NCBI GenBank assembly: GCA_041166245.1
Contig: JBEEFQ010000071.1
Location: 1 to 53,464, forward strand
Source: Actinomycetota bacterium
GTDB lineage: Bacteria > Actinomycetota > Acidimicrobiia > Acidimicrobiales > JAFATL01
DNA length: 53,464 nt
Reading direction: 5' to 3'
The notes beneath the pieces are model-generated. The model saw only the letters and a list, made by a program, of their open reading frames with translations. It was not told the origin of the DNA and searched no databases. Each line of letters begins with the position of its first letter. Positions within the stretch are counted from its first letter, which is position 1. The translations under genes were made by a program, and so were the position numbers. Shown here piece by piece: positions 12,918 to 43,184 of the stretch.

Positions 12918-15437
12918 TCAGACGACAGCGAGGATCTGCAGCTCGGCGAAGCCGCCGCACGTCGGGTCCTCGTGTCCCGAGAAGTGAATGAGCATGCGGT
13001 TCCCCACGGCGTTGGGCTGGAAGGTGACGTCGGGGTCGGGTGTGCCGGGCAGCGCCGCGCTCTGTTCGAACACCAGCCGCTGTTGTGAGTCGTAGAGCTC
13101 GATGGTGACCTGCCCGAAGCCGAACCCGGTGCGGAAGTCGGGGCGGGCGTGGTTGCGGTTGGAGACGAGCTTGATCGACTGGATCATGGCCTCCGGTCCC
13201 TGCCACGCGAACGTGGAGTTGCCGTTCTCGGGCCCGGCTGAGAACCACGACGTGGCCGCGCTGCCGTCGATGGCCAGCCGGGCGGGGAACTCCCCACCGG
13301 GAAACACGGTCGACGCGTTCACGTTGCCCTGACGGGCGATGTCAGTGGCCTGCTTCGCCGCCGTGGTCGCGGGCACCGCGGTCGTGGTCGTCGCGCCCAC
13401 CACGCCCGGCAGCGAGGCGTCGACGTCCGGGCCCGCGTCGACACCTGCGGGCCGGCCGAACGGCGCACCGCTCTGGGTGTCGCGCAGGACGAACTGGGTC
13501 ACCGGCTGTTCGGCGCGCGTGACGACCTGCACGTCGGTCGGGCTGAAGCCCGTCCAGCGCGTGCCGACGTAGCGAGGAGACTCCCGCACCTCGATCGGCG
13601 CCAGCAGCGGGTTGCCGCACGCGCACTTCACGCGCGGCACGCCGAACTGGTCGAGCATGACTGCAGTGCCGGCCTGGATGACGGCCTGGAACGGGTCGGC
13701 GCGGCCGTTGCGGAAGCCGTGGTTGGTCACGCGGGTGTCGCGCAGCAGGACGACGGGAGTGAGCGACCGGATGTAGGCGGCGATGTCACCCGGCTGCACG
13801 TCCACCCCGCCGTCGCGCAGCGCGGCCCGCCACGACGACGCCTTGACCGCGTTCGTCGCGTCGGTCAGGAAGGTGATCAAGGCCTCGGCGTCACAGCTCT
13901 TGGCGTCGCGTGTGCCGCCGAAGAGGCCGGGCGTCGACCCACGACTGGTGGTGATGGCGCCGGAGTCGCCGCCGCTCGTAACAGGAGGAATTGCGACTGG
14001 AGCCACGGGCGTGGCGGCCTTGGCGACGGACGGGGTGAACGGCGCCGACCCTGTTGCGTCGGCCGACTCGAGGAAGATCTCCCCGGCGCCGGCCTTCTTG
14101 TCCCCGCCGAACACGGTTGCCGCCGCCGCGATCAACGCGATGGCCACGACCGCGGCCGCTCCAGACAGCCACTTGCGCCCCGGCTTGGCCTCGGTCGGGG
14201 GCCGGGCGGGGGGCGGCTTCCGTCCGCCCGGCGCGGCCGCAGGAGGCGGCGGCGGGGGCGGTGGGATGGGCCCGGGTGCGACCGGCAAGGGCTGGGTCGC
14301 ATCCGCGGGCGGCGCAGGCGGCGGGGGCGGCACCGTCGGGGCAGCTTCCGGTGTTCCCGCGGCTCGCGCCGCGGCCTCGGCGCCGTAGCGGGCGGCACCG
14401 AGGGCGACGGCGTGCTTGGGGTCGGCGTCGAGGGCGACGGGCCTTCCCAGCTCAGCCCCCAGCTGCTGGGCGACGATCGGGATGCGTGACGAGCCGCCGA
14501 CGAGGAGCACGGCCTTGACGCCGGCTGGCTCCACGCCCGCCGACCGCAGTGCTCGGCTCAGCGCCTGCACGGTTGGCGCGAGCGTCGGGGCGATCATGGC
14601 TTCGAACTCGGCGCGCGTCAGCCGCACCTCGGTCTGCACCGGCGGGAGGATCACGGGGATGGCGACGTCCGTGTCGGCCGAGAGTGCCTCCTTTGCATCG
14701 ATGCATTCCTCGCGCAACCGGTACACCGCGCTCAGCGCCGACGGGTCGTCGGGGTCGAGGGCTTCGAGCGCCTCCCGCACCGATCGGGCAACGTGGGTGT
14801 ACACGGCCTCGTCGAAGTCGATGCCGCCGAGGCGCTCGATGCCCTCCGGCTTGCCGAGCACCTCGAAGCCGTCCGCGGTCTTGCGCAACACGGCGGCGTC
14901 GAAGGTGCCGCCGCCGAGGTCGTAGACGGCGATGACGTCGCCCACGTCGACCCGCTCGTTGGCCGCATAGGAGATGGCAGCCGCTTCGGGCTCGGTGATG
15001 GTGGTGACCGGTATGTCGCCGAGGTCCGCCTGGGCCACGGCCTGGCCAAGCAGCTCCTGCTTGTACGGGCCCCAGTTGGCCGGGTAGCTGACGGTGACTC
15101 CGTCGGGCGGACCACCTTGGCGCTCGCGCACGGCGTCGACCACGAAGCGCAGGAGCTTGGCGGTCAACGCGTCGGCCGAGTACGGCGTTGAGCCGACCAC
15201 GATGGGCGTGGGGTCACCGAGCCGGCGCTTGAACTCGCGCACCACGCTGTCCGGTTCGAGCGACGCCCGCCGGGCTGCGGCCTCGCCCACGAGGCTCGTT
15301 CCGTCCTCTCGCAGGAACAGCACGGAGGGGATGGCGGCGGCGTGGGTCCCCAGCGTCACCACCTCGGCCCGGCCGTCGCGAACGATGGCCGCTGCCGTCC
15401 ACGTCGTGCCGAGATCCACCCCTACCCAGTAACCCAC
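12918..15437 (-). CDS. Hsp70-family ATPase domain protein with Pro-rich linker, single TM helix and extracytoplasmic C-terminal region ending in a discoidin (F5/8 type C)-like domain
   Basis: Motifs GVDLGTTWTAAA, VYDLGGGTFD and LLVGGSSRIP. Poly-Pro segment, then the TM helix AAAVVAIALIAAAATVF. The C-terminal LAIDGSAATSWFS...GFAELQI is discoidin-like. Start is GTG 15437 (preferred) or TTG 15485. Confidence 0.8.
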   Translation of the reverse strand: MGYWVGVDLGTTWTAAAIVRDGRAEVVTLGTHAAAIPSVLFLREDGTSLVGEAAARRASLEPDSVVREFKRRLGDPTPIVVGSTPYSADALTAKLLRFVVDAVRERQGGPPDGVTVSYPANWGPYKQELLGQAVAQADLGDIPVTTITEPEAAAISYAANERVDVGDVIAVYDLGGGTFDAAVLRKTADGFEVLGKPEGIERLGGIDFDEAVYTHVARSVREALEALDPDDPSALSAVYRLREECIDAKEALSADTDVAIPVILPPVQTEVRLTRAEFEAMIAPTLAPTVQALSRALRSAGVEPAGVKAVLLVGGSSRIPIVAQQLGAELGRPVALDADPKHAVALGAARYGAEAAARAAGTPEAAPTVPPPPPAPPADATQPLPVAPGPIPPPPPPPPAAAPGGRKPPPARPPTEAKPGRKWLSGAAAVVAIALIAAAATVFGGDKKAGAGEIFLESADATGSAPFTPSVAKAATPVAPVAIPPVTSGGDSGAITTSRGSTPGLFGGTRDAKSCDAEALITFLTDATNAVKASSWRAALRDGGVDVQPGDIAAYIRSLTPVVLLRDTRVTNHGFRNGRADPFQAVIQAGTAVMLDQFGVPRVKCACGNPLLAPIEVRESPRYVGTRWTGFSPTDVQVVTRAEQPVTQFVLRDTQSGAPFGRPAGVDAGPDVDASLPGVVGATTTTAVPATTAAKQATDIARQGNVNASTVFPGGEFPARLAIDGSAATSWFSAGPENGNSTFAWQGPEAMIQSIKLVSNRNHARPDFRTGFGFGQVTIELYDSQQRLVFEQSAALPGTPDPDVTFQPNAVGNRMLIHFSGHEDPTCGGFAELQILAVV

Positions 15438-15498
15438 GGGACGCGAGCGTAGGACGCGGGTGGGTAGCGTTGTCGGTGTCGGCAACGGGGGAGGGTCG

Positions 15499-17358
15499 TT
15501 GAGCTATCGGCTCGGCGTCGATTTGGGCACAACGTGGACCGCTGCGGCAGTGGCGCGCGGCGGGCGCGTCGAGATGGCGGCCCTCGGCAGCCGCGGCGCG
15601 GCGGTGCCGTCGGTCATCTTCGTGCGAGAGGACGAGACCATCCTTGTGGGCGAACCTGCCAGCCGACGGGGCCTGACCGAACCCGATCGGGTCGTGCGCG
15701 AGTTCAAGCGCCGCTTCGGCGACCCGACGCCGATCCTCGTGGGGGGCACGCCCTACGCGGCGGACGGGCTCATGGCCAAGATGCTGCGGTGGGTCGTCGA
15801 CACGGTCGCGGCACGAGAGGGAGGTCCGCCCGACGCCGTGGTGGTCACCCACCCGGCCAACTGGGGCCCCTACAAGCTCGACCTGCTGGCTCAGGCCGTT
15901 CGGCTGGCCGACGTCGGCGAGGCGGTGGTGATCTCCGAGCCCGAAGCGGCGGCCATCTCCTATGCAGGCAACGAGCGCATGCAGGTCGGTGAGACCATCG
16001 CCGTCTACGACCTCGGCGGCGGCACCTTCGACGCGGCCGTGTTGCGCAAGACGGCAGACGGCTTCGAGGTGCTGGGCCGCCCCGACGGCATCGAGCGCCT
16101 CGGCGGCATCGACTTCGACGAGGCGGTGTTCTCCCACGTAGCCCGCACCCTGGCCAGCAGCTTCGAGAGCCTCGATCCCGACGACCTGTCCGCCCGCAGC
16201 GCGGTGGCCCGGCTGCGCGATGACTGCATCGACGCCAAGGAGGCACTGTCCTCGGACACCGACGTGGTGATCCCAGTGATCCTGCCCGCGGTGCAGACCG
16301 AGGTGCGGTTGACGCGGTCGGAGTTCGAGGACCTGATCAGGCCCGCGCTGTCGCCGACGGCCGACGCGCTGTCGCGCGCCCTTGCGTCGGCTGGTGTCCT
16401 CATGGCCGACCTGCGCGCGATATTGCTCGTCGGGGGTTCCTCGCAGATCCCGCTGGTCGGCCAGCTCCTCGCCGAGCGCCTCGGCTGCCCGGTGGCCATC
16501 GACGCCCATCCCAAGCACACCGTCGCCATGGGCGCAGCCCGGGCTGGTCTCAGCGGCGCGGTCGCCGTGCCCGCCACACCGCTGCTGCCGCCTCCCCCGC
16601 CCCCCCCGCCCTCGGGACCCCCGCGTGCAGCACCTCCCGTTGCGTCGCCGTCAGCGTCGCCCCCGGCCGAGCCACCTCCGCCACCGCCGACAGCACCGCA
16701 GCCGCCACCACCGCCTCCGCCAGGCGCGTCCGCTCCACCTCCAGCCCCGACCGAACCGTCCGACACCCCCGAGCCGCCTCCCGTCGGTGCATCCACGGGG
16801 GATGATGACCGGCGGCGCAAGCGTCGGCGAGTGCTGAGGATCGTCGGCGTGGTGGTGCTCGTGTACCTGGTCCTCTCCGTCGCGGCCCGGGTGGTGGTCA
16901 GTGTGACTGACGGCAGCGGCGACGGCGGCGCCGCGTCGTCCCAGGCGTCGCTGGGGTTTGCGGCTCGGGAGTCCGACGCCGAGGTGCAACAGGCGATCGC
17001 CGCGGTTCTCGCCGCCGAGCAGGCCTACTACGAGGAGCACGGCGAGTACACGGAAGACCACGCCGAGGAAGACCCACAGAGCTCCGACGCGCCCGAGCGG
17101 CTGACGGGAGTCTCCGTCCCTGACGTGGCGACTGACTACGGCTTCTACCCCAGAGAGACCGGCGTGGTCATGTTCTGGATCGGTTACAAGAACGAGGGCA
17201 ATCAGATCGACGGCGCCTTGTACCTGGGCGTCCTGGCTGGGTCCGAGCGATGCTTCTATGCACGTGCGAACGGAGGGGAGGTCCTCACCGCCGTCAACCT
17301 CCTCTGTGACGACGCGACCGAGCTCGAATACTCCAAGGACGCGTGGGAGCTGCCGTGA
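15499..17358 (+). CDS. Hsp70-family ATPase domain protein with Pro-rich linker, single TM helix and extracytoplasmic C-terminal domain (divergent paralogue of 12918-15437)
   Basis: Shares the same Hsp70 NBD motifs, about 70% identical to the divergent neighbour by eye. TM helix VLRIVGVVVLVYLVLSVAARVVV. TTG 15499 is preceded by GGGGGAGGG; the longest-ORF start is GTG 15460. Confidence 0.8.
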   Translation: MSYRLGVDLGTTWTAAAVARGGRVEMAALGSRGAAVPSVIFVREDETILVGEPASRRGLTEPDRVVREFKRRFGDPTPILVGGTPYAADGLMAKMLRWVVDTVAAREGGPPDAVVVTHPANWGPYKLDLLAQAVRLADVGEAVVISEPEAAAISYAGNERMQVGETIAVYDLGGGTFDAAVLRKTADGFEVLGRPDGIERLGGIDFDEAVFSHVARTLASSFESLDPDDLSARSAVARLRDDCIDAKEALSSDTDVVIPVILPAVQTEVRLTRSEFEDLIRPALSPTADALSRALASAGVLMADLRAILLVGGSSQIPLVGQLLAERLGCPVAIDAHPKHTVAMGAARAGLSGAVAVPATPLLPPPPPPPPSGPPRAAPPVASPSASPPAEPPPPPPTAPQPPPPPPPGASAPPPAPTEPSDTPEPPPVGASTGDDDRRRKRRRVLRIVGVVVLVYLVLSVAARVVVSVTDGSGDGGAASSQASLGFAARESDAEVQQAIAAVLAAEQAYYEEHGEYTEDHAEEDPQSSDAPERLTGVSVPDVATDYGFYPRETGVVMFWIGYKNEGNQIDGALYLGVLAGSERCFYARANGGEVLTAVNLLCDDATELEYSKDAWELP

Positions 17359-28819: not shown

Positions 28820-29947
28820 GTGGCGTTGCAGGTTGGCGACGGGAGGGCTCGATCGGTGGTCGAGCCGACGCGCACGTCGGACCCTGCCCACGATGTGTTC
28901 GGCTCGCTCTATCAGGAGCATGCGTCCCGTGTCCGAGCACTTGTACGGCGCCGGATACGAGACAACGGGCTCGTCGAGGACATCGTGCAGGAAACGTTCG
29001 TTCGTGCCCACCGGGGCATCGCGCACTTCGACGATGACCGCTCACCGTGGCCATGGCTCGCGACAGTGGCGCGCAACCTCTGCATCGATGCTGCGCGGCA
29101 ACGGGCCCGGGTCAGAGAAGACCTCTGTGCCGAGCTTCCTCGGGCCGTCCTGGCTCGGTCGGATGCGCACTCCGACCCCCACGCCCGCCTCATGGATCGG
29201 AACCGGTTGCGCGGGCTGAAGGAGGCGATGTCGAGTCTCTCCGACAAGGAGCGGCGGGTGCTCCTGATGAGGGAGGTCGATGGGTTGTGCTACGACGACC
29301 TGGCCGAACTCGAGGGTCTGACGCTGGACGCGATCAAGTCGATGTTGAAGCGTGCCCGACGAACCGTACGCGCGTCATACGCCGCCCTGGCTGACTCGCG
29401 AGGCTTGGCGGGTATCGCCGGGCTGACGGCCAACGCCATGGCCCGTGCGCGCAACCGTCTGGGGCGTGTGCCCCACGCCGCCTCGGTGTGGAGCCGCGTC
29501 GGCTTGCCCCTCGAGGCCATGGCGTCAGCGGTTGCGGCCACGCTCATGGTGACGACGGCGGTCCTTGTCGGCCCCGGGGACGTGCACCCTGGTGGCGGAT
29601 CGATCGGCAACGCCACTCGTGTGGTGCGTCCAGGGGTCGAGCAGCGGTCGGTGGGCCCGACGGAATCGGCACCGCGCGGCGGCTCGAGGGCCACACCGAG
29701 CCCTGGCGGGTCCAAGGCGTCGCTCACCGCGGCCCGCGCCGCGGGGGCCGGGCCGATCGATGCTGGGGCCGACACCGCGTTTCGCCGTGGCGAGAACCTC
29801 ACGCTGAACGCCAAGGTCTTCGCCAAAACCCCCGCGAGGCGGGACCCGCTGGAGGGCGGCGGTTGGGCTGACATCGAATGCATGAAGAACGAAGTGCGAG
29901 AGACGGCGTGTGGCGCTGTCGATCTGATACCGGAACCCGGCGGCTGA
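28820..29947 (+). CDS. ECF-type sigma-70 factor with about 180-aa C-terminal extension containing a predicted TM segment
   Basis: Region 2 (DIVQETFVRAHRGIAHFD, WLATVARNLCIDAAR) and region 4 (LSDKERRVLLMREVDGLCYDDLAELEGLTLDAIKSMLKRARR). These are followed by the hydrophobic AMASAVAATLMVTTAVLVG and a Gly/Pro/Ala-rich tail. Confidence 0.8.
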   Translation: MALQVGDGRARSVVEPTRTSDPAHDVFGSLYQEHASRVRALVRRRIRDNGLVEDIVQETFVRAHRGIAHFDDDRSPWPWLATVARNLCIDAARQRARVREDLCAELPRAVLARSDAHSDPHARLMDRNRLRGLKEAMSSLSDKERRVLLMREVDGLCYDDLAELEGLTLDAIKSMLKRARRTVRASYAALADSRGLAGIAGLTANAMARARNRLGRVPHAASVWSRVGLPLEAMASAVAATLMVTTAVLVGPGDVHPGGGSIGNATRVVRPGVEQRSVGPTESAPRGGSRATPSPGGSKASLTAARAAGAGPIDAGADTAFRRGENLTLNAKVFAKTPARRDPLEGGGWADIECMKNEVRETACGAVDLIPEPGG

Positions 29948-29965
29948 AACCGAGGAGCCTCAGGC

Positions 29966-30289
29966 ATGGATGCTTTCGATCACAACCGCACGGGATGGTG
30001 GGTCCGCGCAGGTATCGGGTTGGCGGTTTCGGCCTGCGTCCTCCTCGTGTCGCTGGGCTTCTTCCCGGCGTCAGCGATCGCCCAGGCCTGCGCGGTGACG
30101 GGTGCGCCCGAGGCTGGATGTCCGGTGGAGTCGCCACCGGTCAGTCCGCCGCCGCAAACCAGAAACGATTGTTTTGGGGTCTACGTCGGCGGCGTGCGCT
30201 ACCAGAGCTGTCCGCCGCTGCCCATCGTCGTCTCGTTGCTGCCGACGGTGCTCGACGCGATAGACGATCTCATCCACAACCGATCCTGA
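29966..30289 (+). CDS. small secreted/membrane Cys-containing protein
   Basis: 107 aa, GAGGAG SD 8 nt upstream. Signal/anchor WWVRAGIGLAVSACVLLVSLGFFPASAIAQA followed by four Cys residues. No family recognised. Confidence 0.55.
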   Translation: MDAFDHNRTGWWVRAGIGLAVSACVLLVSLGFFPASAIAQACAVTGAPEAGCPVESPPVSPPPQTRNDCFGVYVGGVRYQSCPPLPIVVSLLPTVLDAIDDLIHNRS

Positions 30290-30355
30290 CTCCGAGCGTC
30301 GCGTAGAGGGGCCTCGCGCGGCTGACACTTTTTGGCCGGGCGGTCGTACTGACGG

Positions 30356-31342
30356 GTGATGCACGCGACGGTCCTCGACACCGAGATCAGCTGCCTCTCT
30401 TTCGCCGGCGTCAGCGTGTCGGTGGACGCGCCGCACGACGTGCTGGCGATGGTCCACAGGGAGTTCGGCCCGGCGCCGCCAGAGTCGTCGTTGGTAGCAG
30501 CCTGGCGTGTCGTCGTTCGCTACGAGCCGGACCCCGAGGCCTGTGCTCGCGGCGTCCTGCAAGCCGAGGAGCACCTCCTCATCGCCAACGACCTGGGTGC
30601 CAACCGGGTGCTCTGGGGTGGCCCGGGCGGAGCGGCTGTGCGTGTCTACGAGGGCGGGGTCGGGTTCTCCCAGAGCCGGGACGGATCCACCCTCGTCGTC
30701 GTCCGCGACCACGCCGCCGCGGTCTGGGTCGTTCGATCAGAGATCTGCGCAGCGGTCATGACCTCGCTGGCCGCAGCCTCGTGGACCGTGTTGCACGCCG
30801 GAGTGGTGGCTTCTGATTCGGGCCGTGGCGTCGTGATCGCTGGACCGAAGGGCGCCGGGAAGAGCACGACTTCGTTGTTGGCCTGGCACTTCGGGTACCG
30901 GTTGCTGACTGACGAGGCGTGCTTCTTCACGGAGCGGGACGTCCGCCGTGTGCACGGGCTGCACCGCCGACCCGCCGTGTCGGCGAGCACGGCCCGGGCC
31001 TACGGATTCGACGATCTGCGCCTGGGTCCTCAGCTGCTCGGAAAGCGCCTGGTCAACCTGGAGTGCGATCCGGTGGGTGACTGCTGGCTGGAGGCCGTCA
31101 TCTTCCCGCGCTTCGAGGAGGGTGGATCAGCAGCGTTCGACCTGATGTCCCCAGAAGCCTCCGACGACGCGCTGCAGACGGTGCTGACCAGTGCGCCCAG
31201 CGACGCGACCTCTGCCCTGGACGCCCTGATCGCTGCGGTGCCGTTCTACACCTGGCGATACGGCAGGGACCTACCTCAGAACGCAGAGGCGCTTCGAACC
31301 GAGCTCGGCGAGATCGTCGGTCCGCCGAAGGAGCCGCGCTGA
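30356..31342 (+). CDS. HPr-kinase-related (HprK C-terminal-like) P-loop kinase
   Basis: VLHAGVVASDSGRGVVIAGPKGAGKSTTSL: an HprK-like Walker A preceded by the H-[AG]-[SG] strand, as in RiPP-associated HprK-related kinases. Confidence 0.7.
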   Translation: MMHATVLDTEISCLSFAGVSVSVDAPHDVLAMVHREFGPAPPESSLVAAWRVVVRYEPDPEACARGVLQAEEHLLIANDLGANRVLWGGPGGAAVRVYEGGVGFSQSRDGSTLVVVRDHAAAVWVVRSEICAAVMTSLAAASWTVLHAGVVASDSGRGVVIAGPKGAGKSTTSLLAWHFGYRLLTDEACFFTERDVRRVHGLHRRPAVSASTARAYGFDDLRLGPQLLGKRLVNLECDPVGDCWLEAVIFPRFEEGGSAAFDLMSPEASDDALQTVLTSAPSDATSALDALIAAVPFYTWRYGRDLPQNAEALRTELGEIVGPPKEPR

Positions 31343-32073
31343 TGACGGCAACGGAGAACCTGTCGAGAGTCGAGCTGCCGGCCACCGAGTGGCTGCTCGG
31401 GCGGCTCGATGTTCCGGTCGTCGGATTGATCCATCACGGGTCCACTGCTCTCGGTCTGGGCAACGAGCGTTCCGACATCGACATCCTCGCGCTCAGCCAT
31501 GCCGCGGGTCGCCGGCCGCTCCAGGTCGTTGGGTGGGAGCGATCGGTCCATGTCGACTACCGCAGGCCCAGCGACCTTGATCCCGAGCAGTTGTCCGAGC
31601 TCCTGCTCTCGAGGATGTTCGACACCAACTCGATCGTGACTCGGATATCGACGGGCATCGTCGTCTTCGACACCGACGGCGTGGCCGCCGCGCTCGTCGG
31701 CCGGTTCCGCGACTGGCGCCTGCCTGAGCTGGTGGCCAAGAAGCTGGTGCTGGAGGTGCTCGGCTTTCTGAACGACGTCTCGGGGGCGTTGGGTGACGAC
31801 GAAACCGAGACAGCTGACGTCCTGCTGCGCCTAGTGGCCCACTCCCTGGCCAAGGCCGCGCTGATCGACGCCGGTGTCCACGTCGTGGCCCCGAAATGGC
31901 AGTACCGGCTCCTGGAGCGGCACGCCCCGGTGGCCGCACGTGGCTTCCTCGAAGTCGCCGGACTCGGCGCGGCGCCGTCGGCGCTGACCGCCAGGTACGC
32001 CGCGGCCCGGGCTTGGCTGCGAGAGATTCGTGACCGGTTCGCGCTGCGCGCCGCCACGGGGGACCTGGCGTGA
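31342..32073 (+). CDS. Pol-beta-superfamily nucleotidyltransferase domain protein
   Basis: hG[GS]-x10-DhDh signature HHGSTALGLGNERSDIDIL followed by a helical domain. The start ATG overlaps the upstream TGA by 1 nt. Confidence 0.7.
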   Translation: MTATENLSRVELPATEWLLGRLDVPVVGLIHHGSTALGLGNERSDIDILALSHAAGRRPLQVVGWERSVHVDYRRPSDLDPEQLSELLLSRMFDTNSIVTRISTGIVVFDTDGVAAALVGRFRDWRLPELVAKKLVLEVLGFLNDVSGALGDDETETADVLLRLVAHSLAKAALIDAGVHVVAPKWQYRLLERHAPVAARGFLEVAGLGAAPSALTARYAAARAWLREIRDRFALRAATGDLA

Positions 32074-33281
32074 ACCGGCTCCTCGTCAGGCGCCCCCAGA
32101 TCCTCGGAGTGAGGTCCGATGACGCTTTCCTTGTCTTTGACCCCCGGACAGGTGCGGCCATGCGGGCACCCGCGGAGCTGTCGGACCATTGGTCGGAGCT
32201 CGCCGCGGGCATCGACCCTGCGCTGCTGCCCGAAGCGGCGACGACATCGCTGTTGCGCCGGGGCGTTGTCCGGCTCGTAGAACAGCGCGGCGACCTGTCG
32301 CGGCCGGACCGCGGAGCGGCGCCGCCATTCCGCCGCTCGGCCCAGCCGAGGGTCGAGCTCGACTGTCCCGAGTCCGACCAGCTGCTCCTCCGGGGCCTGC
32401 TGGGGCACGACCACGCCGGTCCCGGACCTGCCCTCAGGATCGAGCTTCGTCGGCGACCGTGTCGTGTCCTGCCACAGGGCTTTGCGCGAGTCGGTGTCGG
32501 GCGGGACTTCGAGGTGTTCGAGCAGGACGCCGCCATGTTGCTCCGGGGCTCGGGCTGGACCGCCGGACTCGAGATCGGCGCGGATGGGGCCAGGTTGCGC
32601 GCTACGTACGAGGACGCGCTCGAGACTGTCCTCGAACCGCTCGTGAAGCTGACCGACGACGCGCTGGCGTGGCTCTACGAGCACCACCGGTTGGGAGTGA
32701 CGCTCCACGCGTCGGGCATCGCTCTCGGGACGGCAGGCGTGGCCCTGTGCGGCGACTCGGGGATGGGGAAGACCTCTCTCGCGGGAGCTCTCGTGCGATC
32801 GAGCGCCGCCTGCTGCTCGCTCGGCGACGACCTCGTGATCGTCACCACTGCGAACGCGGCAGCGCCGATGATGCGGCGGGCACCCTCGGCGCGGTTCACG
32901 CGCAACGGCACTGGTCCGCGGCGCCTCGAGCCGACCGCAGCCTTTTCGGGTCGCGTCGAGCTGCGCATGGTCTGCCTGCTGTCGAGGGTCTCCTCACTGC
33001 GAGTCGACGTGAGCGAGGTTCCCGCGCAGGCAGCGTGGGCGACCCTCATGCGTTCGCGGGCCGCCAGTCGGCGGTACGTCGCCACCGCGGTCCGGCGCCG
33101 GGATCGTGCGCTCGACGAGTGGGTCGCGACCGAGCTGTTGCGCCTCTGCCAAGACGTCGAGACGGCGACCGTCGTGATCGGGGAGGACCAAGTCGGCCGC
33201 GCCGCCCAAGCGGTCCTGGCGCGGGTCGCGCCCCCCGAATCCCGTAGGGAAGCACAACGTCCATCACCGGAAGGGAGGTGA
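32070..33281 (+). CDS. HprK-related P-loop kinase with N-terminal PqqD/RRE-like segment
   Basis: TLHASGIALGTAGVALCGDSGMGKTSLAGAL (HprK-like Walker A). N-terminal AFLVFDPRTGAAMRAPAELSDHWSEL...LLRRGVV resembles PqqD-type peptide-binding domains. GTGA overlap with the upstream gene. Confidence 0.65.
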   Translation: MNRLLVRRPQILGVRSDDAFLVFDPRTGAAMRAPAELSDHWSELAAGIDPALLPEAATTSLLRRGVVRLVEQRGDLSRPDRGAAPPFRRSAQPRVELDCPESDQLLLRGLLGHDHAGPGPALRIELRRRPCRVLPQGFARVGVGRDFEVFEQDAAMLLRGSGWTAGLEIGADGARLRATYEDALETVLEPLVKLTDDALAWLYEHHRLGVTLHASGIALGTAGVALCGDSGMGKTSLAGALVRSSAACCSLGDDLVIVTTANAAAPMMRRAPSARFTRNGTGPRRLEPTAAFSGRVELRMVCLLSRVSSLRVDVSEVPAQAAWATLMRSRAASRRYVATAVRRRDRALDEWVATELLRLCQDVETATVVIGEDQVGRAAQAVLARVAPPESRREAQRPSPEGR

Positions 33282-33286
33282 AGCGC

Positions 33287-33412
33287 ATGACCACGTCCGA
33301 TCGTTCCGAGCCGGGCCGGGAGATCCCGGCATGGGAGCTCGTGGACCTTGACGAGCGGCAGCTCCCGCAGCTGCTCAACGCCATCAAGGCCTGGATAGCC
33401 AGCATCAGCTAG
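33287..33412 (+). CDS. small ORF 1 (41 aa), candidate precursor peptide MTTSDRSEPGREIPAWELVDLDERQLPQLLNAIKAWIASIS
   Basis: ATG sits 5 nt after the kinase stop, with SD GGAAGGGAGG upstream. Paralogous to sORF2 and sORF3. Not in the ORF track because it is shorter than 60 aa. Confidence 0.65.
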   Translation: MTTSDRSEPGREIPAWELVDLDERQLPQLLNAIKAWIASIS

Positions 33413-33437
33413 CCCACTCACGAAGAAAGGAAGCGAC

Positions 33438-33572
33438 ATGGAGCAGGCGAGCTGTCGCACCGATGGGTGCATCGACTCGATGGCGACGTGGGACCTGGTC
33501 GATCTCGACGAACGGCAGTCCCCGATCGCGAAGCTGATCTTCGACGCCGTCCTCGAGTGGGTCATCAGCTGA
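33438..33572 (+). CDS. small ORF 2 (44 aa), candidate precursor peptide MEQASCRTDGCIDSMATWDLVDLDERQSPIAKLIFDAVLEWVIS
   Basis: ATG preceded by GAAAGGAAG. Shares W-x-L-V-D-L-D-E-R-Q and a C-terminal W-V-I-S. The last 15 nt (TGGGTCATCAGCTGA) are identical to sORF3. Confidence 0.65.
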   Translation: MEQASCRTDGCIDSMATWDLVDLDERQSPIAKLIFDAVLEWVIS

Positions 33573-33700
33573 GAAGCGGGCCACCGGTTCCAAGGACCGC
33601 AGCAGAACAGCACGACGGGAGCATCGGATCGGTCGCCCCGTTTCGAATTGCTCGACGGGCTGTCCCAAGAAGCTCATCAAACAACTGACTGGGAGGTCAC

Positions 33701-33814
33701 GTGAAGCCCATCAACTGCAGCGAGTCGGCCTGGAGGCTCGACGACCTGGACGAACGCCAAGCGGCGATCTGGAAGGAGATCGGCATCGCCGTCCTGGCGT
33801 GGGTCATCAGCTGA
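33701..33814 (+). CDS. small ORF 3 (37 aa), candidate precursor peptide MKPINCSESAWRLDDLDERQAAIWKEIGIAVLAWVIS
   Basis: GTG preceded by GGGAGG at 4-nt spacing. Has the same conserved core and the same C-terminal WVIS-stop as sORF2. Confidence 0.6.
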   Translation: MKPINCSESAWRLDDLDERQAAIWKEIGIAVLAWVIS

Positions 33815-33870
33815 CTCGGATCCTGGGGAGGGGCGTCGGCGGCGCCCCCTACCCGACACAGGGAGACCAC

Positions 33871-35085
33871 ATGACTTCCTCTATGACAACCGACCCCCCT
33901 GCTGGTGCCGCTGTGGTGCGGCACGAGCCGGGCGCAGCCGTTGGAGACGTGAAGGTCGATGGGCGGCCCGTCCTGGGCTTCGTCGGCCGCGAACGCTTCG
34001 TCCTGCTGACCGAGCAGCAGCAACGAGTGTGGAGCCTGATCCCGGCCCACGGCTGTTCGACCGCCGAGTTGCAGGAGCATTACGAGGCGGCTTCGGACGA
34101 CGCGGGCGACTGGATCCCCCGTTTCCTGAGCGAGCTCCGGAGCCGGGGCTTTCTCGCAACGCCGGATGGGCCGACCGAGGAGGTTCGAGGCGAGCCGGCC
34201 GTGATGGTGAGTGCGCAGCCGAGCCGGCTCCTGGCTGACGTATCGATTCGCCTGCCCGGCAGGCTCCGCGAGGCGCTGGAGCTGGTCGGTCGATCGGCCG
34301 CGTTGAGCCGTGGTGCGCTTGCGGCCCAGGCGGCCCTGGTGGTCGTCGCGGTCGTGGTGCACGGACGGGACGTTCTGCGAGGCCCCGGCACGGCCATGGC
34401 AGGGTTGGACCTCGTCCACGTCGTGGCGGTCTACGGACTGTTTGTCTTGACGGCGGTCGTGCACGAGCTGGGCCACGCCTTGGCGATGGCGCGTTATACC
34501 GACGCCCCGCGTCGAGGCGGCCTGATGGTGCGGTACGTGCTCTTCGTCGGCTTCTACGTGCGAACCACGGGCGCGTGGGCGCTGCCTCGGCGACAGCGCG
34601 TCATCGTTGGCCTCGCCGGACCGTGGCTCAACTTCGTATGTGGAGCGCTCCTGTTCTTCTCCGGCCATGCCGTCCAGGGCGACGAGGGGGCAACCCTCGT
34701 CGCGGCCGGGTCCCTCAGCGTGCTGGTGGGCGCGCTCAACCTCTTTCCGTTCTTCTTGAAAACGGACGGCTACTACGTCCTCAACGACCTGCTCGAGACG
34801 TCCAACTGGAGGCGCCGTGGTTCCAGCATTGCGCTCGCGATCGTCCGGCGCTCCCGCCCCATCGGCTCGTTGAGCCTCCGCGACCGCATCATCGTCTGGG
34901 CCTTTGTGCTGCAGGCCGGCTTCTGGCTGTTTCTGTTGCACCGGGTGAGCCATGGCCTCTCGCGGCTGACGGGGTTGTCGCCGGTCGCCGTCGTCCTTGT
35001 GTTGGTCGGTGTTCCTCGCCTGGGTCCACTCGGTCGCTACGTTCGAGCTCGGCTTGCGGTCCGGCGCCAGGGAAGGCCGACATGA
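33871..35085 (+). CDS. M50 (site-2-protease-like) membrane zinc metallopeptidase with N-terminal PqqD/RRE-like domain
   Basis: HELGHA in a TM helix plus NLFPFFLKTDGYYV (the NxxPxxxxDG motif of the S2P family). The N-terminal FVLLTEQQQRVWSLIPAHGCSTAELQEHY...FLSELRSRGFL is PqqD-like. ATG 33871 follows GGGAGA. Confidence 0.75.
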   Translation: MTSSMTTDPPAGAAVVRHEPGAAVGDVKVDGRPVLGFVGRERFVLLTEQQQRVWSLIPAHGCSTAELQEHYEAASDDAGDWIPRFLSELRSRGFLATPDGPTEEVRGEPAVMVSAQPSRLLADVSIRLPGRLREALELVGRSAALSRGALAAQAALVVVAVVVHGRDVLRGPGTAMAGLDLVHVVAVYGLFVLTAVVHELGHALAMARYTDAPRRGGLMVRYVLFVGFYVRTTGAWALPRRQRVIVGLAGPWLNFVCGALLFFSGHAVQGDEGATLVAAGSLSVLVGALNLFPFFLKTDGYYVLNDLLETSNWRRRGSSIALAIVRRSRPIGSLSLRDRIIVWAFVLQAGFWLFLLHRVSHGLSRLTGLSPVAVVLVLVGVPRLGPLGRYVRARLAVRRQGRPT

Positions 35086-36635
35086 CCCGTCGGGTCATCG
35101 CCGTTGCCGCCCTCATCGCCGCCTTCCTCGCTGGAGTGCCGATCACGTTCACGGCTGCGGCCGCTGCAGCGGCGGGTCCCCCCGTCCTCGCTGTCATCAG
35201 CACCGGTCTGGACGTCGGTCACGAGCAGTTCGCCTACGGCGGGCCGTTGGACACGACTGACCAGATCGTCGCATGGTGGGACTTCACAGCCACGGTCGCG
35301 CCTTTGCACGAGCCGGACGTCGGACAGATCTGGGACTCCGCGGTGCCGGACCCGTATGACACCGTCGGTGAAGGGACCGCGGCGACATCGCTCGCGGCCG
35401 GCGCGGGCCGGTACGGCGACGCTACGCCGGCGTTGGCGCCCGGCGGTCAGGTGGCGGTGGCCCGGGTGTGTCAGGAGACGGTGTGCGACGGCAAGCTGTC
35501 CGTCGCGATCCGATGGGCGGTCGACACCGTCCAGGCGGACGTCGTGTTGGTGACGCCGGGCTACAGCACGCCTTTCCCGGCGGAGCTCAACTACGTGGAC
35601 GAGGCCGTGCGCTATGCCCGGGAGCATGACGTGCTGGTCGTGGCCGGCCAGAGCTTGGGCTCCCGAGCGACGCCTGCCGAAGGCTCCGTCGGCGCGACGA
35701 ACTCGTTGGTGAACGCGTCGTCGGCGCTGCTTGTCGGGGCCGCGGACGATGCTGCGTGGTCGAGCGGTCGAGAGCTCGTGGTCCCGGCCGGATTGTCGGC
35801 TGCATCGACATCGTGCGCGGCTTGTTACGCGCCGGCGGCCGGACGGACGTACAACCCGCTGGCCGGCGGTTCCTCCGTGCCTGGGTACGTGGCGGGCATG
35901 GCCCTGCAAGCCCGTGCCGAAGCCCAGGCCGCCGGTAGGCCGGCCGACGCTGACCGCATCGAGACGCTTTTGAAATGGAGCGCACGCGACACTGACGCCA
36001 GCCCGGCGACCGAGGGCTACGGCATCCTCGACCGCCCTGCGTTCGACGACGACGTCGTGCCGCACGCGAGGGGAGGAACCCTTCCTGGTCGCCCGGCCCC
36101 CGATGTCAACGCCATATACGTCGAGCGGGTCGCTGGTCCGGCCCACGACGCGTGGACCGAGACGCTGGACGAGGAAGGGCTCAAGCTCCTTGTCCCGACC
36201 CCCCAGCCTGCGGGTTCGGGTGCTGGTCGCATCGCACCTGGCTCGGTGCCCGGGCGGACGGAGGTGGAGTCATACGCCGTGGCCCTGCAGCCGGGTGACG
36301 TCTTTGCGGTCGCCCTCTCCTTGGCCGCCGCCAGCGAGCCCGTGCCCGGCACCAACGACGTCGACCTCTTCGTCTTCGCTGGACGAGGTCCCACCTTCAC
36401 CGGCAGAGACATCCTCGCCAAGTCCGCGAACGGGCCCGGGGCGGACGAACACGTCGAGTACCGGGCCGTGGCCGCCGGGTGGGTGACGGTCGCGGTCGTG
36501 GGCTCGGTCGTGACAGGTGACCAGGACGTGGTTCTGGCCGGGCGGTCCTGGCCGGCGCCGAGCCTGCTCAGCTCCGCACCCGTCCAGATGCAGCTGCAGC
36601 TCAGCGACGAGCGATTCTACGTGGGCACTTCCTGA
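35082..36635 (+). CDS. secreted subtilisin (S8)-like protein with degenerate catalytic motifs and C-terminal PPC (pre-peptidase C-terminal)-like domain
   Basis: Signal peptide MTRRVIAVAALIAAFLAGVPITFTAAAAAAAG. S8-like blocks are AVISTGLDVGH, GEGTAATSLAAG and GGSSVPGYVAGMAL. The C-terminal DVDLFVF...GWVTVAVVG is PPC-like. ATGA overlap with the M50 gene. Confidence 0.7.
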   Translation: MTRRVIAVAALIAAFLAGVPITFTAAAAAAAGPPVLAVISTGLDVGHEQFAYGGPLDTTDQIVAWWDFTATVAPLHEPDVGQIWDSAVPDPYDTVGEGTAATSLAAGAGRYGDATPALAPGGQVAVARVCQETVCDGKLSVAIRWAVDTVQADVVLVTPGYSTPFPAELNYVDEAVRYAREHDVLVVAGQSLGSRATPAEGSVGATNSLVNASSALLVGAADDAAWSSGRELVVPAGLSAASTSCAACYAPAAGRTYNPLAGGSSVPGYVAGMALQARAEAQAAGRPADADRIETLLKWSARDTDASPATEGYGILDRPAFDDDVVPHARGGTLPGRPAPDVNAIYVERVAGPAHDAWTETLDEEGLKLLVPTPQPAGSGAGRIAPGSVPGRTEVESYAVALQPGDVFAVALSLAAASEPVPGTNDVDLFVFAGRGPTFTGRDILAKSANGPGADEHVEYRAVAAGWVTVAVVGSVVTGDQDVVLAGRSWPAPSLLSSAPVQMQLQLSDERFYVGTS

Positions 36636-40937: not shown

Positions 40938-43184
40938 GTGACGGCCACGCTCGATCCCACGACCGAAGAGGTCGTTGCCCCGCCTCGCGGGGTCGGCCCC
41001 GGTTCGGCGGGCGCGCCACCGCGAGGCACAACGGATGACGAAGACCTCGAGGAGATCGGGCCGGTCCTGCGGCCTGCCATCGCCGCCGCCCTGACCTCAG
41101 CGGCCGCGGGTGTGCTCGCGGGCGGCATGTTCGTCGGCGTCGCGCCGCGCGTGTGGGCCATCCTCGGCGCGGTCGTGGGCGTCGCCGCCGCGTGCTGGTT
41201 GGCCCGGCGGCGCGACATCACGCCGGTCAACCAGCTGGTCGCCGCGGGCATGGTGCTGGGTGCCGGCATCGTGGCCCTCGCCGTCTTCGACACGGGCAGC
41301 GTCGGCAGCCTGCCGAAGCTGGTCGGCGAGGCCGTCGCCAGCGGGAAGCTGCGCCAGCCCCCGGCCCCGTTCGAGCCGGGGTGGCGGCCGCTCATCGTCT
41401 GGGTGCTGGGCGCGGTGGGCTTCGGCGCGGCGTGGGTCGGCGTGGCCCTCCGCAAGCCAGGCCCGGCCATGCTCGTGCCCCTGCCCTTGGTGGCCTTCGC
41501 GGCAACGGGCCAGCCGGACTACGCGGCCGTGGCCAGCGGCGTGGTGGTGTTCGTGCTGTTCGCGGCCGCTCTGGCGGTGGTGTTCCGCGCCGACGGCGGC
41601 GACGGCGAGAAGATGCCGGTCAGCTTCGAGCTCAAGCGTGCGTTCCGGGCCGCGCCGCTGGCCGTCATCCTCATCGTGGGGCTCGTCGCCCTGAGCCAGA
41701 CCGACTTCTTGTTCCCGAAGCCGCTCTACGACCCGGCCGAGCAGGCGCAGAAGCCCAAGACAACGCCGCTGTCCGAGGTCGAGGACCGCATCCTGTTCAC
41801 CGTCGTCTCCAAGAACTACACGGGACCGTGGCGGCTGGGTGGCCTCGATGTCTACGACGGCAAGCAGTGGTTGCTGCCGCCCTTCGCAGAATCACGCCTT
41901 CTCGACCTCCCGCGCGACGGCATCATCGACAAGTCCCTGCCGCCGGGCGTGAAGACGTCGTTCACCGTCGAAGGCCTCGAAGGCACGGTGCTCCCGCTGC
42001 CGAACCGGACGCTGGGCCTGGTGTTCGTCGGACCCAAGCTGGTGGTCGACCCACGCACCGCCACCGTCAGGGTGTCGGCCGGACAGGTTCGGCGCTCGTT
42101 CAAGTACGACGTGGCCGCGGCCGCCCTTCCCACCATCGACCAGCTGCAGACCGCGTCGGTGACGCAGGACCCCAAGCTGCTCGAGTTCACCGACGCACCG
42201 CCGGTACCGGAGGCGGTCCGCAAGCTCTTCGCCGAGACGCCGGCGACGACCCCATGGGAGCGGCTCGACTTCGCGCGCAAGCGCCTCCTGGAGACGGTCA
42301 CGGCCGAGGGCGCTGGTCTTCCGTCTGAGGTCCCGCCCTCGAAGATCACGGACCTGCTCGAGGGATCGAAGAAGGGAACACCGTTCGAGATCGTGGCCGC
42401 CCAGGCCCTCATGGCCCGCTGGCTCGGTATCCCGTCGCGCATCGGGTTCGGCTTCGACGGCGGCGACCGCAAAGGCGACGTGCTGGAGGTCAGGCCGCTG
42501 CATGGCTCGTCGTGGCTCGAGGTGCACTTCGAGGGGCAGGGCTGGTTCCCCATCACCGGCGCGCCGAAGAAGGCCAAGCAGTCGCTCTCCAACAAGGACC
42601 CGCAGCGCCAGCAGGAGATCGTCCCGAGCGACGAGATCGGCGTGCTGGTCTTCGTGCCCCTGCGCACCGATCCGCCGAGCGTTCTGCGCGACGCGCTGCA
42701 GCGCTATGTCCTCATGGGCGTCATCGCCGTGCTGCTCGTCCTCCTGACGTACGCGCTCTGGCCGCTGCTGACCAAGGCGCGCCTGCGATCGAAGCGGCGA
42801 CGGTGGGCTGCGGATCATGGCCCACGAGCGCGTATCGCCAACGCCTACGCCGAGTTCCGGGACGCAGCGACCGACCTCGGTGTCGGTCATCCCGAGGACA
42901 CGCCGATGCGGTTCCTCAACCGTGTGGCCGAGGACGACGAGCACACCGAGCTGGCGTGGCTGGTGACCCGCACGATCTGGGGCGACATGCGGGAGAGCGC
43001 GGGCGAGGACGAGGTCCTCGTCGCCGAGGAGCTGAGCCGCAGCCTGCGGGCCCGTCTGGCCCGGGCCCAACCGGTGACGATCCGCATCCTCGCCGCGGTG
43101 TCGCGCCTGTCGCTGCGCTCGCCGTTCGCGCCCGAGTTGATCCGGGCCGCCCGAAGTCGAGGAGACCGCCGTGCCGCTGCATGA
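40938..43184 (+). CDS. transglutaminase-like domain membrane protein (TgpA-like)
   Basis: About 6 N-terminal TM helices, an extracytoplasmic region with a transglutaminase-core-like block (FEIVAAQALMARWLGIPSRIGFGF...HGSSWLEVHFEGQGWFP), and a C-terminal TM plus cytoplasmic tail. Confidence 0.8.
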   Translation: MTATLDPTTEEVVAPPRGVGPGSAGAPPRGTTDDEDLEEIGPVLRPAIAAALTSAAAGVLAGGMFVGVAPRVWAILGAVVGVAAACWLARRRDITPVNQLVAAGMVLGAGIVALAVFDTGSVGSLPKLVGEAVASGKLRQPPAPFEPGWRPLIVWVLGAVGFGAAWVGVALRKPGPAMLVPLPLVAFAATGQPDYAAVASGVVVFVLFAAALAVVFRADGGDGEKMPVSFELKRAFRAAPLAVILIVGLVALSQTDFLFPKPLYDPAEQAQKPKTTPLSEVEDRILFTVVSKNYTGPWRLGGLDVYDGKQWLLPPFAESRLLDLPRDGIIDKSLPPGVKTSFTVEGLEGTVLPLPNRTLGLVFVGPKLVVDPRTATVRVSAGQVRRSFKYDVAAAALPTIDQLQTASVTQDPKLLEFTDAPPVPEAVRKLFAETPATTPWERLDFARKRLLETVTAEGAGLPSEVPPSKITDLLEGSKKGTPFEIVAAQALMARWLGIPSRIGFGFDGGDRKGDVLEVRPLHGSSWLEVHFEGQGWFPITGAPKKAKQSLSNKDPQRQQEIVPSDEIGVLVFVPLRTDPPSVLRDALQRYVLMGVIAVLLVLLTYALWPLLTKARLRSKRRRWAADHGPRARIANAYAEFRDAATDLGVGHPEDTPMRFLNRVAEDDEHTELAWLVTRTIWGDMRESAGEDEVLVAEELSRSLRARLARAQPVTIRILAAVSRLSLRSPFAPELIRAARSRGDRRAAA

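Follow-up and report, generated by a model that had tools for sequence, protein, structure and literature searches.

The present analysis concerns a stretch of 53,464 nt (contig JBEEFQ010000071.1 of the assembly GCA_041166245.1), referred to here as the window, from a metagenome-assembled genome of an uncultured Actinomycetota bacterium, and within it a row of genes surrounding three small open reading frames (ORFs), sORF1 to sORF3. The row is co-directional, tightly packed and operon-like, and lies on the forward (+) strand. It comprises genes for an extracytoplasmic function (ECF)-type sigma factor (28820..29947), a 107-aa predicted membrane protein (29966..30289), an HprK-like P-loop protein (K1, 30356..31342), a nucleotidyltransferase of the Pol-beta superfamily (NTase, 31342..32073) and a second HprK-like protein, the kinase K2 (32070..33281). 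These are followed by the three peptide genes (sORF1, 33287..33412; sORF2, 33438..33572; sORF3, 33701..33814), a GC-rich hairpin with an 8-bp stem between the last of them and the protease gene (33830..33848), a gene for an M50/site-2-type intramembrane metalloprotease (33871..35085) and a gene for a secreted S8-like protein (35082..36635). The module from K1 to the protease is compact (~4.7 kb). In the NCBI annotation the cluster proteins QOG87_908, 909, 910 and 912 are listed as hypothetical proteins. JGI 3300044739 as well as Logan SRR24887413 and SRR24887408 also contain the window organism, with identical sequences throughout.

The region from 33287 to 33814, to which a previous sequence-only reading of the window had drawn attention, extends exactly from the start of sORF1 to the stop of sORF3. 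sORF1 encodes a peptide of 41 aa (MTTSDRSEPGREIPAWELVDLDERQLPQLLNAIKAWIASIS; stop TAG), sORF2 one of 44 aa (MEQASCRTDGCIDSMATWDLVDLDERQSPIAKLIFDAVLEWVIS; stop TGA) and sORF3, which has a GTG start, one of 37 aa (MKPINCSESAWRLDDLDERQAAIWKEIGIAVLAWVIS; stop TGA). As that reading had stated, all three peptides end in Ser with the stop directly following (...AWIASIS, ...EWVIS and ...AWVIS, respectively), and the terminal codon is AGC in each of them. The three are paralogues with an overall identity of 38-41%, in which the block W-x-L-x-D-L-D-E-R-Q is invariant. Each consists of an acidic leader containing this motif and a putative core of 16-17 residues, taken to start after the R-Q/R-E motif, which is hydrophobic to amphipathic (mean hydrophobicity 0.41-0.64 on the Eisenberg scale) and ends in Ser. 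A Shine-Dalgarno sequence, GGGAGG or AAGGAAG, can be read 5-8 nt upstream of each sORF, the third-position GC content (GC3) of the three is 0.88-0.92, and independent callers predicted all of them as genes in the assemblies of this organism from JGI and Logan. The back-translated leader motif matched three times in the window, compared to 0.00 matches expected from shuffles, and a search with a relaxed protein regular expression revealed no fourth peptide copy in the window. Judged by these sequence features, the peptides are convincing putative precursors of a peptide that is made ribosomally and modified post-translationally (RiPP). The last 15 nt are identical in sORF2 and sORF3 (33557-33572 and 33799-33814; TGGGTCATCAGCTGA), with the rest of the cores being different, which reflects either a strong constraint on the WVIS-stop sequence or local gene conversion.

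Relatives of this gene row are extremely rare. An exhaustive HMMER search with K2 over 1.84 billion representatives yielded one full-length relative (P0002; 32% identity, 9e-18) and one shorter relative (P0003; 8e-11), followed by generic matches at 1e-5 or above. P0002 is encoded on a 4.3-kb Logan contig (L003) with the gene order K1-NTase-K2-peptide, followed by a hairpin and the end of the contig; the L003 peptide (MNTQTNEEVVEEVEVWDLIELDDRQLPQLLTWLKEKALELKSLFT, then a stop) ends in ...KSLFT. P0003 is encoded on a 2.2-kb JGI contig (L116) with the order (K1 fragment)-NTase-K2-peptide, K1 being cut down by the contig edge to its C-terminal 130 residues. The L116 peptide (MDSVEPTEDSWKVVDLADRETPALLHAIISWLLS, then a stop) ends in ...SWLLS and its motif reads W-K-V-V-D-L-A-D-R-E; behind it lie a hairpin and a gene start resembling the N-terminus of the M50 protein of the window. 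Identities to the window proteins amount to 38-47% for the NTase, 30% (L003, 1e-24) and 22% (C-terminal fragment in L116) for K1, and 29-32% for K2. Searches of 5.8 billion proteins with profiles of the peptides and of the NTase yielded nothing beyond the window organism, L003 and L116, and a word-indexed search with K2 likewise returned only the window organism and the L003 and L116 proteins. A DNA scan with the leader motif (TGGNNNCTNNNNGANCTNGAYGANCGNCAR) gave 49 matches in genome_contigs and 62 in metagenome_contigs, all of them chance matches inside larger ORFs; since this pattern is too strict (the L116 peptide would not match it), a lack of further family members cannot be concluded from the scans. 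A faint precomputed 'ScmC' Pfam match on P0002 was not reproduced, and in the literature the name turned up solely as acronyms for unrelated things.

A GC-rich stem-loop was observed 3′ of the last precursor gene at all three loci (window 33830-33848; L003 4295-4315; L116 ~2067-2107). Its z-scores are -3.4 for L003 and -3.3 for L116, and in the window it consists of a perfect 8-bp stem with a weaker overall z-score. The hairpin could serve as an attenuator or stabiliser that sets the ratio of precursor to enzyme.

With the two additional loci, five peptides could be compared. Their last residue is Ser in four cases and Thr in one (L003), and it represents the only Ser/Thr position common to all five putative cores; in the core of sORF3 it is the sole residue with a hydroxyl group. 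Among the six-frame ORFs of the window, 13% end in Ser and 20% in Ser or Thr, so that the finding of three independent loci that all end in Ser/Thr corresponds to p ~0.008, the paralogues not being independent. This is suggestive rather than strong. The expectation that orthologous peptides should conserve a C-terminal Ser, which the sequence-only reading had put forward as a way to refute its proposal, was borne out for L116 and failed for L003. The conserved feature is therefore a C-terminal hydroxy amino acid and not Ser as such. The Thr codon at the end of the L003 peptide is ACC (4280-4288), one transversion away from the AGC found in the other four peptides; as L003 is a single short Logan contig, this Thr may also be due to a sequencing or assembly error. 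It had furthermore been suggested that two kinases could mean two modified sites, for example in the SIS sequence of sORF1. This idea is not supported: K1 and K2 are both retained at each of the three loci (K1 in L116 as the C-terminal fragment), although the C-terminal part of sORF2 and of sORF3 contains just one Ser. The other Ser positions in this part of the peptides do not align with each other.

The two HprK-like proteins and the nucleotidyltransferase reported to adjoin the peptides are indeed encoded there, but curated models recognise all of them weakly. The matches to K1 and K2 are confined to the surroundings of the P-loop. For K2 they comprise TIGR04355 (1e-4) and Pfam Hpr_kinase_C (0.009). 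A profile built from K2 and its two orthologues matched the HPr kinase structure 1ko7 at 3.9e-5, with LHaaaVevdG.tVaLlGdSGmGKS...vaDD as the aligned sequence. An AlphaFold2 model of K2, for which 31 relatives were used, reached a predicted template modelling score (pTM) of 0.72 and a predicted local distance difference test score (pLDDT) of 84-95 over most of the catalytic domain. Foldseek matched this model to ATP-dependent phosphoenolpyruvate carboxykinase (PEPCK; 1e-4) and to HprK/P structures (3e-3 to 1e-2), PEPCK and HprK/P being structural relatives. In the alignment of the 31 sequences, H213, K234, D253 and D254 are invariant or nearly so, and the P-loop is kept as well; mutagenesis has identified the corresponding His-Lys-Asp-Asp residues of lasso-peptide kinases as essential (review PMC9266682). 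K2 is, as modelled, a P-loop enzyme of the HprK/PEPCK fold in which the His-Lys-Asp-Asp motif is intact. K1 matched TIGR04352 (HprK_rel_A, 2.7e-10), Hpr_kinase_C (0.002) and the HprK structures 1jb1 and 2qmh (0.0075), and a motif alignment showed that its catalytic positions read His-Lys-Asp-Glu, as they do in the L003 orthologue. An assignment of K1 or K2 as HPr kinase/phosphorylase proper was rejected, with TIGR00679 scoring 17-18 bits against a cut-off of 240 bits and only ~60 residues around the P-loop being aligned.

In addition to its catalytic domain, K2 has an extra N-terminal domain of ~90 aa, which was modelled at low pLDDT as beta-beta-beta-alpha-alpha and which may be similar to a RiPP recognition element (RRE). 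A comparison of this domain with the N-terminal domain of the M50 protein by hhalign revealed no significant similarity, and the K2 orthologue of L116 does not have it. Two weaker relatives of K2, P0005 and P0024, adjoin genes for Asn synthase and thus lie in a lasso-peptide context, and beside P0024 a textbook lasso precursor ending in Ser is encoded. Among these lasso-type loci, L118 (3520-3738, - strand) has the kinase next to an Asn-synthase-like cyclase, together with a precursor (...YATPHIEDLGNVASLTQ/GTVGKGTDQGLGKNDGKGS) that ends in Ser.

Among the enzymes of the module the NTase shows the highest conservation, with 47% and 38% identity to its orthologues. Its signature HGSxALGxxNxxSDxD (the G-S...D-x-D of the Pol-beta type; G33, S34, D45 and D47) is invariant in all three orthologues, and all of them matched PF01909, the window protein weakly (8.7e-4). 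So far, what links this protein to PsmN or LppN, the nucleotidyltransferases of two kinase-containing systems discussed below, is the superfamily signature.

The protein encoded directly downstream of the hairpin contains HELGH and NLFPFFLKTDG and thereby the M50 motifs HExxH and NxxPxxxxxDG. Its best curated match was the daptide leader peptidase family NF041824 (daptide_HExxH; 4.8e-27, 95 bits vs. a 300-bit cut-off), followed by the YydH/LiaK epipeptide protease (4e-10) and PF02163 (5.7e-9). This daptide-like protease, which was not part of the sequence-only reading, is the strongest clue to the architecture of the cluster, and its kinship makes it the probable leader peptidase. An N-terminal extension of ~125 aa may constitute an RRE. 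The gene of the S8-like protein overlaps with the M50 gene (ATGA) and is translationally coupled to it. The S8-like protein matched PF00082 (5.9e-4), mycosin (1.5e-7) and PPC (0.013), and phmmer found no match for it in the PDB. According to an alignment with subtilisin Carlsberg it keeps the Ser221 position (GGSSVPGYVAG) and has Ser at the position of Asp32 (VLAVISTGLD), Glu in place of His64 (VGEGTAAT) and Gln in place of the oxyanion Asn155 (VVAGQSLG). The catalytic triad thus appears to be degenerate, and a role as pseudo-protease or as binding protein is possible; as its catalytic residues look lost, it was not counted as a working leader peptidase.

Three known systems share features with the locus. 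What had been said before about paeninodin, with a kinase acting on the C-terminal Ser, and about pseudomycoidin, with a nucleotidyltransferase acting on the phosphate, is in accordance with the literature: PadeK, ThcoK and SyanK, and likewise PsmK, phosphorylate the C-terminal Ser of linear lasso precursors, and PsmN, which belongs to the NTP-transferase family, is needed for the addition of a hexose onto the phosphate made by PsmK (PMC9266682). The window operon resembles these systems in encoding a nucleotidyltransferase-superfamily protein, a kinase that is expected to act on a linear precursor and that carries the H-K-D-D residues of HprK-related kinases, and in the lasso contexts of distant relatives of K2. 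It differs from them by the absence of a macrolactam synthetase, a B2 protease and a discrete B1/RRE, by two kinases instead of one, by the M50 leader peptidase and the Actinomycetota host, and by the relative (L003) ending in Thr. Moreover, its leaders (W-E-L-V-D-L, W-D-L-V-D-L and W-R-L-D-D-L) have no Pro at +3 and do not conform to the motif [Y/W]xxPx[LVIAF]. Neither an Asn-synthase-like lasso cyclase nor a lasso B2 protease was found among the called genes within 10 kb on either side, and the previous proposal of a linear, non-lasso scaffold is for this reason a sensible one. Due to the lack of cyclase, B2 protease and leader motif, the locus was not assigned to the paeninodin-type lasso peptides.

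The second system consists of the linear polyphosphorylated peptides (LPPs; genes LppA/K/B/S/D/N; Popov et al., Nat Commun 2026, PMC13381572), which are reported to be restricted to Bacillota and are polyphosphorylated on Ser3 of the core. Their biosynthesis relies on LppK as HprK-like kinase and LppN as NTP-transferase, on a discrete RRE, on a SipW-like signal peptidase and on an exporter of the MsbA type. The leaders carry YxxPxVLxHQxIxFETxxS as their motif, the cores are variable and long, and the precursors comprise 35-200 aa (PMC13381572). Because of this work, the central concept of the sequence-only reading, an HprK-like kinase paired with an NTase for a linear peptide, can no longer count as new in itself. 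The window resembles the LPP loci in that predicted linear ribosomal peptides are encoded together with proteins of both enzyme types, HprK-like and nucleotidyltransferase. It lacks their leader motif and a conserved Ser/Thr near the putative junction of leader and core, and has an M50 protease in place of SipW; the genes called in the cluster and in its 10-kb flanks include no SipW-like peptidase, discrete RRE or MsbA-type exporter. With peptidase, RRE, exporter, leader motif and predicted site all differing, a classification as LPP was rejected.

The third system are the daptides (MpaA1-3, MpaB/C/D/M and the RRE-fused site-2 protease MpaP; Ren et al., Nat Commun 2023, PMC10036551), with several short helical precursors that have an invariant C-terminal residue and are modified on exactly that residue. 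They strictly require a C-terminal Thr, and MpaC rejects Ser (PMC10036551). The window likewise encodes several short precursors with a conserved acidic leader motif, a hydrophobic, helix-prone core and an invariant C-terminal hydroxy amino acid as suspected modification site, and an M50 protein with an N-terminal extension, whose closest curated model is the daptide protease, follows directly after the precursors. In contrast to daptides, the peptides of the window and L116 end in Ser, with only the L003 peptide ending in Thr, the leader motif is a different one, the tailoring set consists of kinases and an NTase, and the protease remains at 95 bits, below the 300-bit cut-off of its model. 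No MpaB, alcohol-dehydrogenase-type decarboxylase, aminotransferase or methyltransferase was found in the cluster or its 10-kb flanks. The locus was therefore not classified as a daptide cluster, given the missing terminal Thr and MpaB/C/D/M enzymes. K1 and K2 were also considered as MpaB-like daptide scaffolds, which was rejected because MpaB is a DUF protein (one with a domain whose function is unknown) with a C-terminal RRE and only the protease matched a daptide model. Judged by its gene content, the layout is most like a daptide-like chassis in which paeninodin-like tailoring enzymes take the place of the amine-forming enzymes.

The cluster probably encodes linear peptides whose last residue receives a phosphate-based decoration. 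The specific scheme that we favour, with modest confidence, is that of a RiPP-type gene cluster in which K2 would phosphorylate the C-terminal Ser/Thr in a leader-guided manner, after which the NTase would build on the phosphate and the leader would be taken off by the M50 protease. In this scheme, the enzymes would bind the leader, possibly via the RRE-like N-terminal domains of K2 and of the protease. K2, with K1 or followed by K1 in a priming, extending or partnering role, would then transfer at least one phosphate from ATP to the hydroxyl group of the last residue, a step modelled on the action of PadeK, ThcoK and PsmK on lasso precursors. By analogy with PsmN, the NTase would add a nucleotide- or sugar-derived group to this phosphate, and finally the daptide-like protease, acting at the membrane, would cut off the leader at the motif or close to it. 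This would yield a linear peptide, short and helical, whose decorated C-terminus is anionic, and thus a charge-reversed counterpart of a daptide, as the kinase/NTase tailoring set implies a C-terminus that is anionic rather than cationic. The scheme is supported by the recurrence of the kinase-NTase-kinase-peptide module in two independent metagenome contigs (L003 and L116). The formation of a C-terminal phospho-Ser, as proposed in the sequence-only reading, is plausible and in part supported by the last residue being the only hydroxyl position in all cores and by the motif of K2; against its strict form stands the incomplete conservation of Ser.

Several observations weigh against this scheme. 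Only three loci were found in the ~15 billion predicted proteins searched, two of them on truncated contigs, and the curated-model matches of K1, K2 and the NTase all remain below the cut-offs. The L003 peptide ends in Thr, which LppK does not accept (PMC13381572), and the substrates of lasso kinases described in a review all end in a conserved Ser (PMC9266682). At L117 (208-638, + strand) two YxxP/HAP-type precursors upstream of a kinase distantly related to K2 end in Ala and Arg, so kinases of this kind are not always accompanied by a Ser-ended precursor. The LPPs, as the one characterised linear system, are phosphorylated by LppK on Ser3 of the core and not on the C-terminus (PMC13381572). 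The boundary between leader and core used here is an assumed one. As to leader binding, no PqqD match was obtained in the N-terminal domain of K2, and the extension of the M50 protein gave weak PqqD matches at one place (PF05402 0.078, TIGR04353 0.15); a single-sequence AlphaFold2 model of the M50 protein, with a pLDDT of 46, was too poor to show an N-terminal RRE. Finally, no exporter is evident in the cluster, and the presence of K1 beside K2 leaves the second kinase with an unexplained role.

Some of these points would fit with a RiPP cluster whose kinases act elsewhere, namely on a Ser/Thr near the leader-core junction or within the leader, with the terminal Ser/Thr being kept for another reason, such as helix capping or recognition by protease, exporter or target. 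Such an explanation would agree with the modification of Ser3 by LppK, a residue close to the cleavage site, with the Ser or Thr that directly follows the R-Q/R-E motif in sORF2 and the L116 peptide, with the kinase-linked precursors of L117 that are not Ser-ended, and with the L003 Thr, which fits badly with Ser-specific relatives. However, neither a junction-proximal nor any other Ser/Thr position is common to all five peptides: the residue after the motif is Leu in sORF1 and the L003 peptide and Ala in sORF3, the Ser/Thr positions of the leaders cannot be aligned, and the core of sORF3 offers no other hydroxyl residue. We consider a site other than the last residue to be unlikely. A different division of labour would have the NTase as the primary modifier, nucleotidylylating the terminal hydroxyl group itself, and one or both HprK-like proteins as scaffolds, phosphorylases or donors of a phosphorylated co-substrate instead of peptide kinases. 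The NTase is the best conserved enzyme (38-47% identity vs. 29-32% for the kinases), its sole family match, weak as it is, is to the Pol-beta-type PF01909, and the Pol-beta superfamily includes enzymes that directly nucleotidylylate substrate hydroxyls; in addition, the second catalytic Asp is replaced by Glu in K1, and HprK/P itself is bifunctional. Still, K2 keeps the whole H-K-D-D motif and the P-loop, the NTase-dependent step of pseudomycoidin requires prior phosphorylation, and deletion of LppN left phosphorylation unchanged (PMC13381572), so that a pathway starting with the NTase appears rather improbable.

It was also considered whether the locus is not a peptide natural-product pathway at all, with the M50 and S8-like proteins carrying out regulated intramembrane proteolysis that controls the neighbouring ECF sigma factor and the small ORFs being regulatory or incidental. 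The cluster does combine, side by side, an ECF sigma factor whose extension spans the membrane, a small membrane protein, the site-2-type M50 protease and the secreted S8-like protein. But the best matches of the M50 protein are RiPP leader peptidases (daptide, YydH/LiaK), the adjacency of peptide and M50 gene is found again in L116, the L003 module has a GerE regulator in place of the sigma factor, the S8-like protein apparently lacks the catalytic Asp and His, and the small ORFs keep a leader-like motif across loci whose enzymes share ~30% identity. This possibility thus seems highly improbable.

Compared to the scheme of phosphorylation and elaboration of the last residue favoured above, a more far-reaching proposal must stay tentative, and we hold it to be somewhat doubtful as a whole: the locus would then represent a new Actinomycetota RiPP family of linear helical peptides with a daptide-type protease, on whose C-terminal Ser/Thr a two-kinase and Pol-beta-NTase module installs a nucleotide or sugar in phosphodiester or pyrophosphate linkage. 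Few routes lead to phosphorylated natural products of ribosomal origin, HprK-like kinases being one of them, and so far the known targets of these kinases have been the C-terminal Ser of lasso peptides and Ser3 of the LPPs of Bacillota. If true, the proposal would extend this kinase chemistry to Actinomycetota, to a daptide-type leader/protease chassis and to the C-terminal residue of a linear peptide, and would add a second kinase and a divergent NTase. It would also be the first case of a ribosomal peptide outside the lasso class with a C-terminal O-phospho(nucleotidyl/glycosyl) modification, and the family would form an anionic mirror image of the daptides. As the peptides are short enough to be synthesised, the prediction is directly testable. 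The extreme rarity of the system limits its ecological importance, and at the same time makes it a clean case for enzyme discovery.

Regarding the remaining genes of the row, the ECF-type sigma factor (Sigma70_r2 7e-19, r4_2 2e-11, TIGR02937 5e-24) has a long C-terminal extension of ~180 residues including a hydrophobic segment. It is likely to be the regulator of the cluster, and it is not conserved in L003, where a GerE-type regulator sits upstream instead. The 107-aa membrane protein encoded directly after it was called as a gene in L001 and L002, is rich in Cys and Pro, has no Pfam or other family match and is not found in L003; it may be an anti-sigma-like partner of the ECF sigma factor. 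The flanking genes are of housekeeping type, among them those for 1-deoxy-D-xylulose 5-phosphate (DXP) synthase, a thiamine pyrophosphate (TPP) enzyme, a MoxR-DUF58-TgpA unit, to which the TgpA transglutaminase at 40938-43184 belongs, and a Liv-type transporter. GC3 is 0.80-0.85 for the cluster genes (28820-36635) and 0.90-0.93 for the flanking genes, a difference that fits with a horizontal acquisition of the cluster. Elsewhere in the window, and unrelated to the peptide cluster, there are a dynamin-family GTPase and a divergently transcribed pair of Hsp70-like genes, one of which is fused to DUF6777 (4253-6055, 12918-17358).

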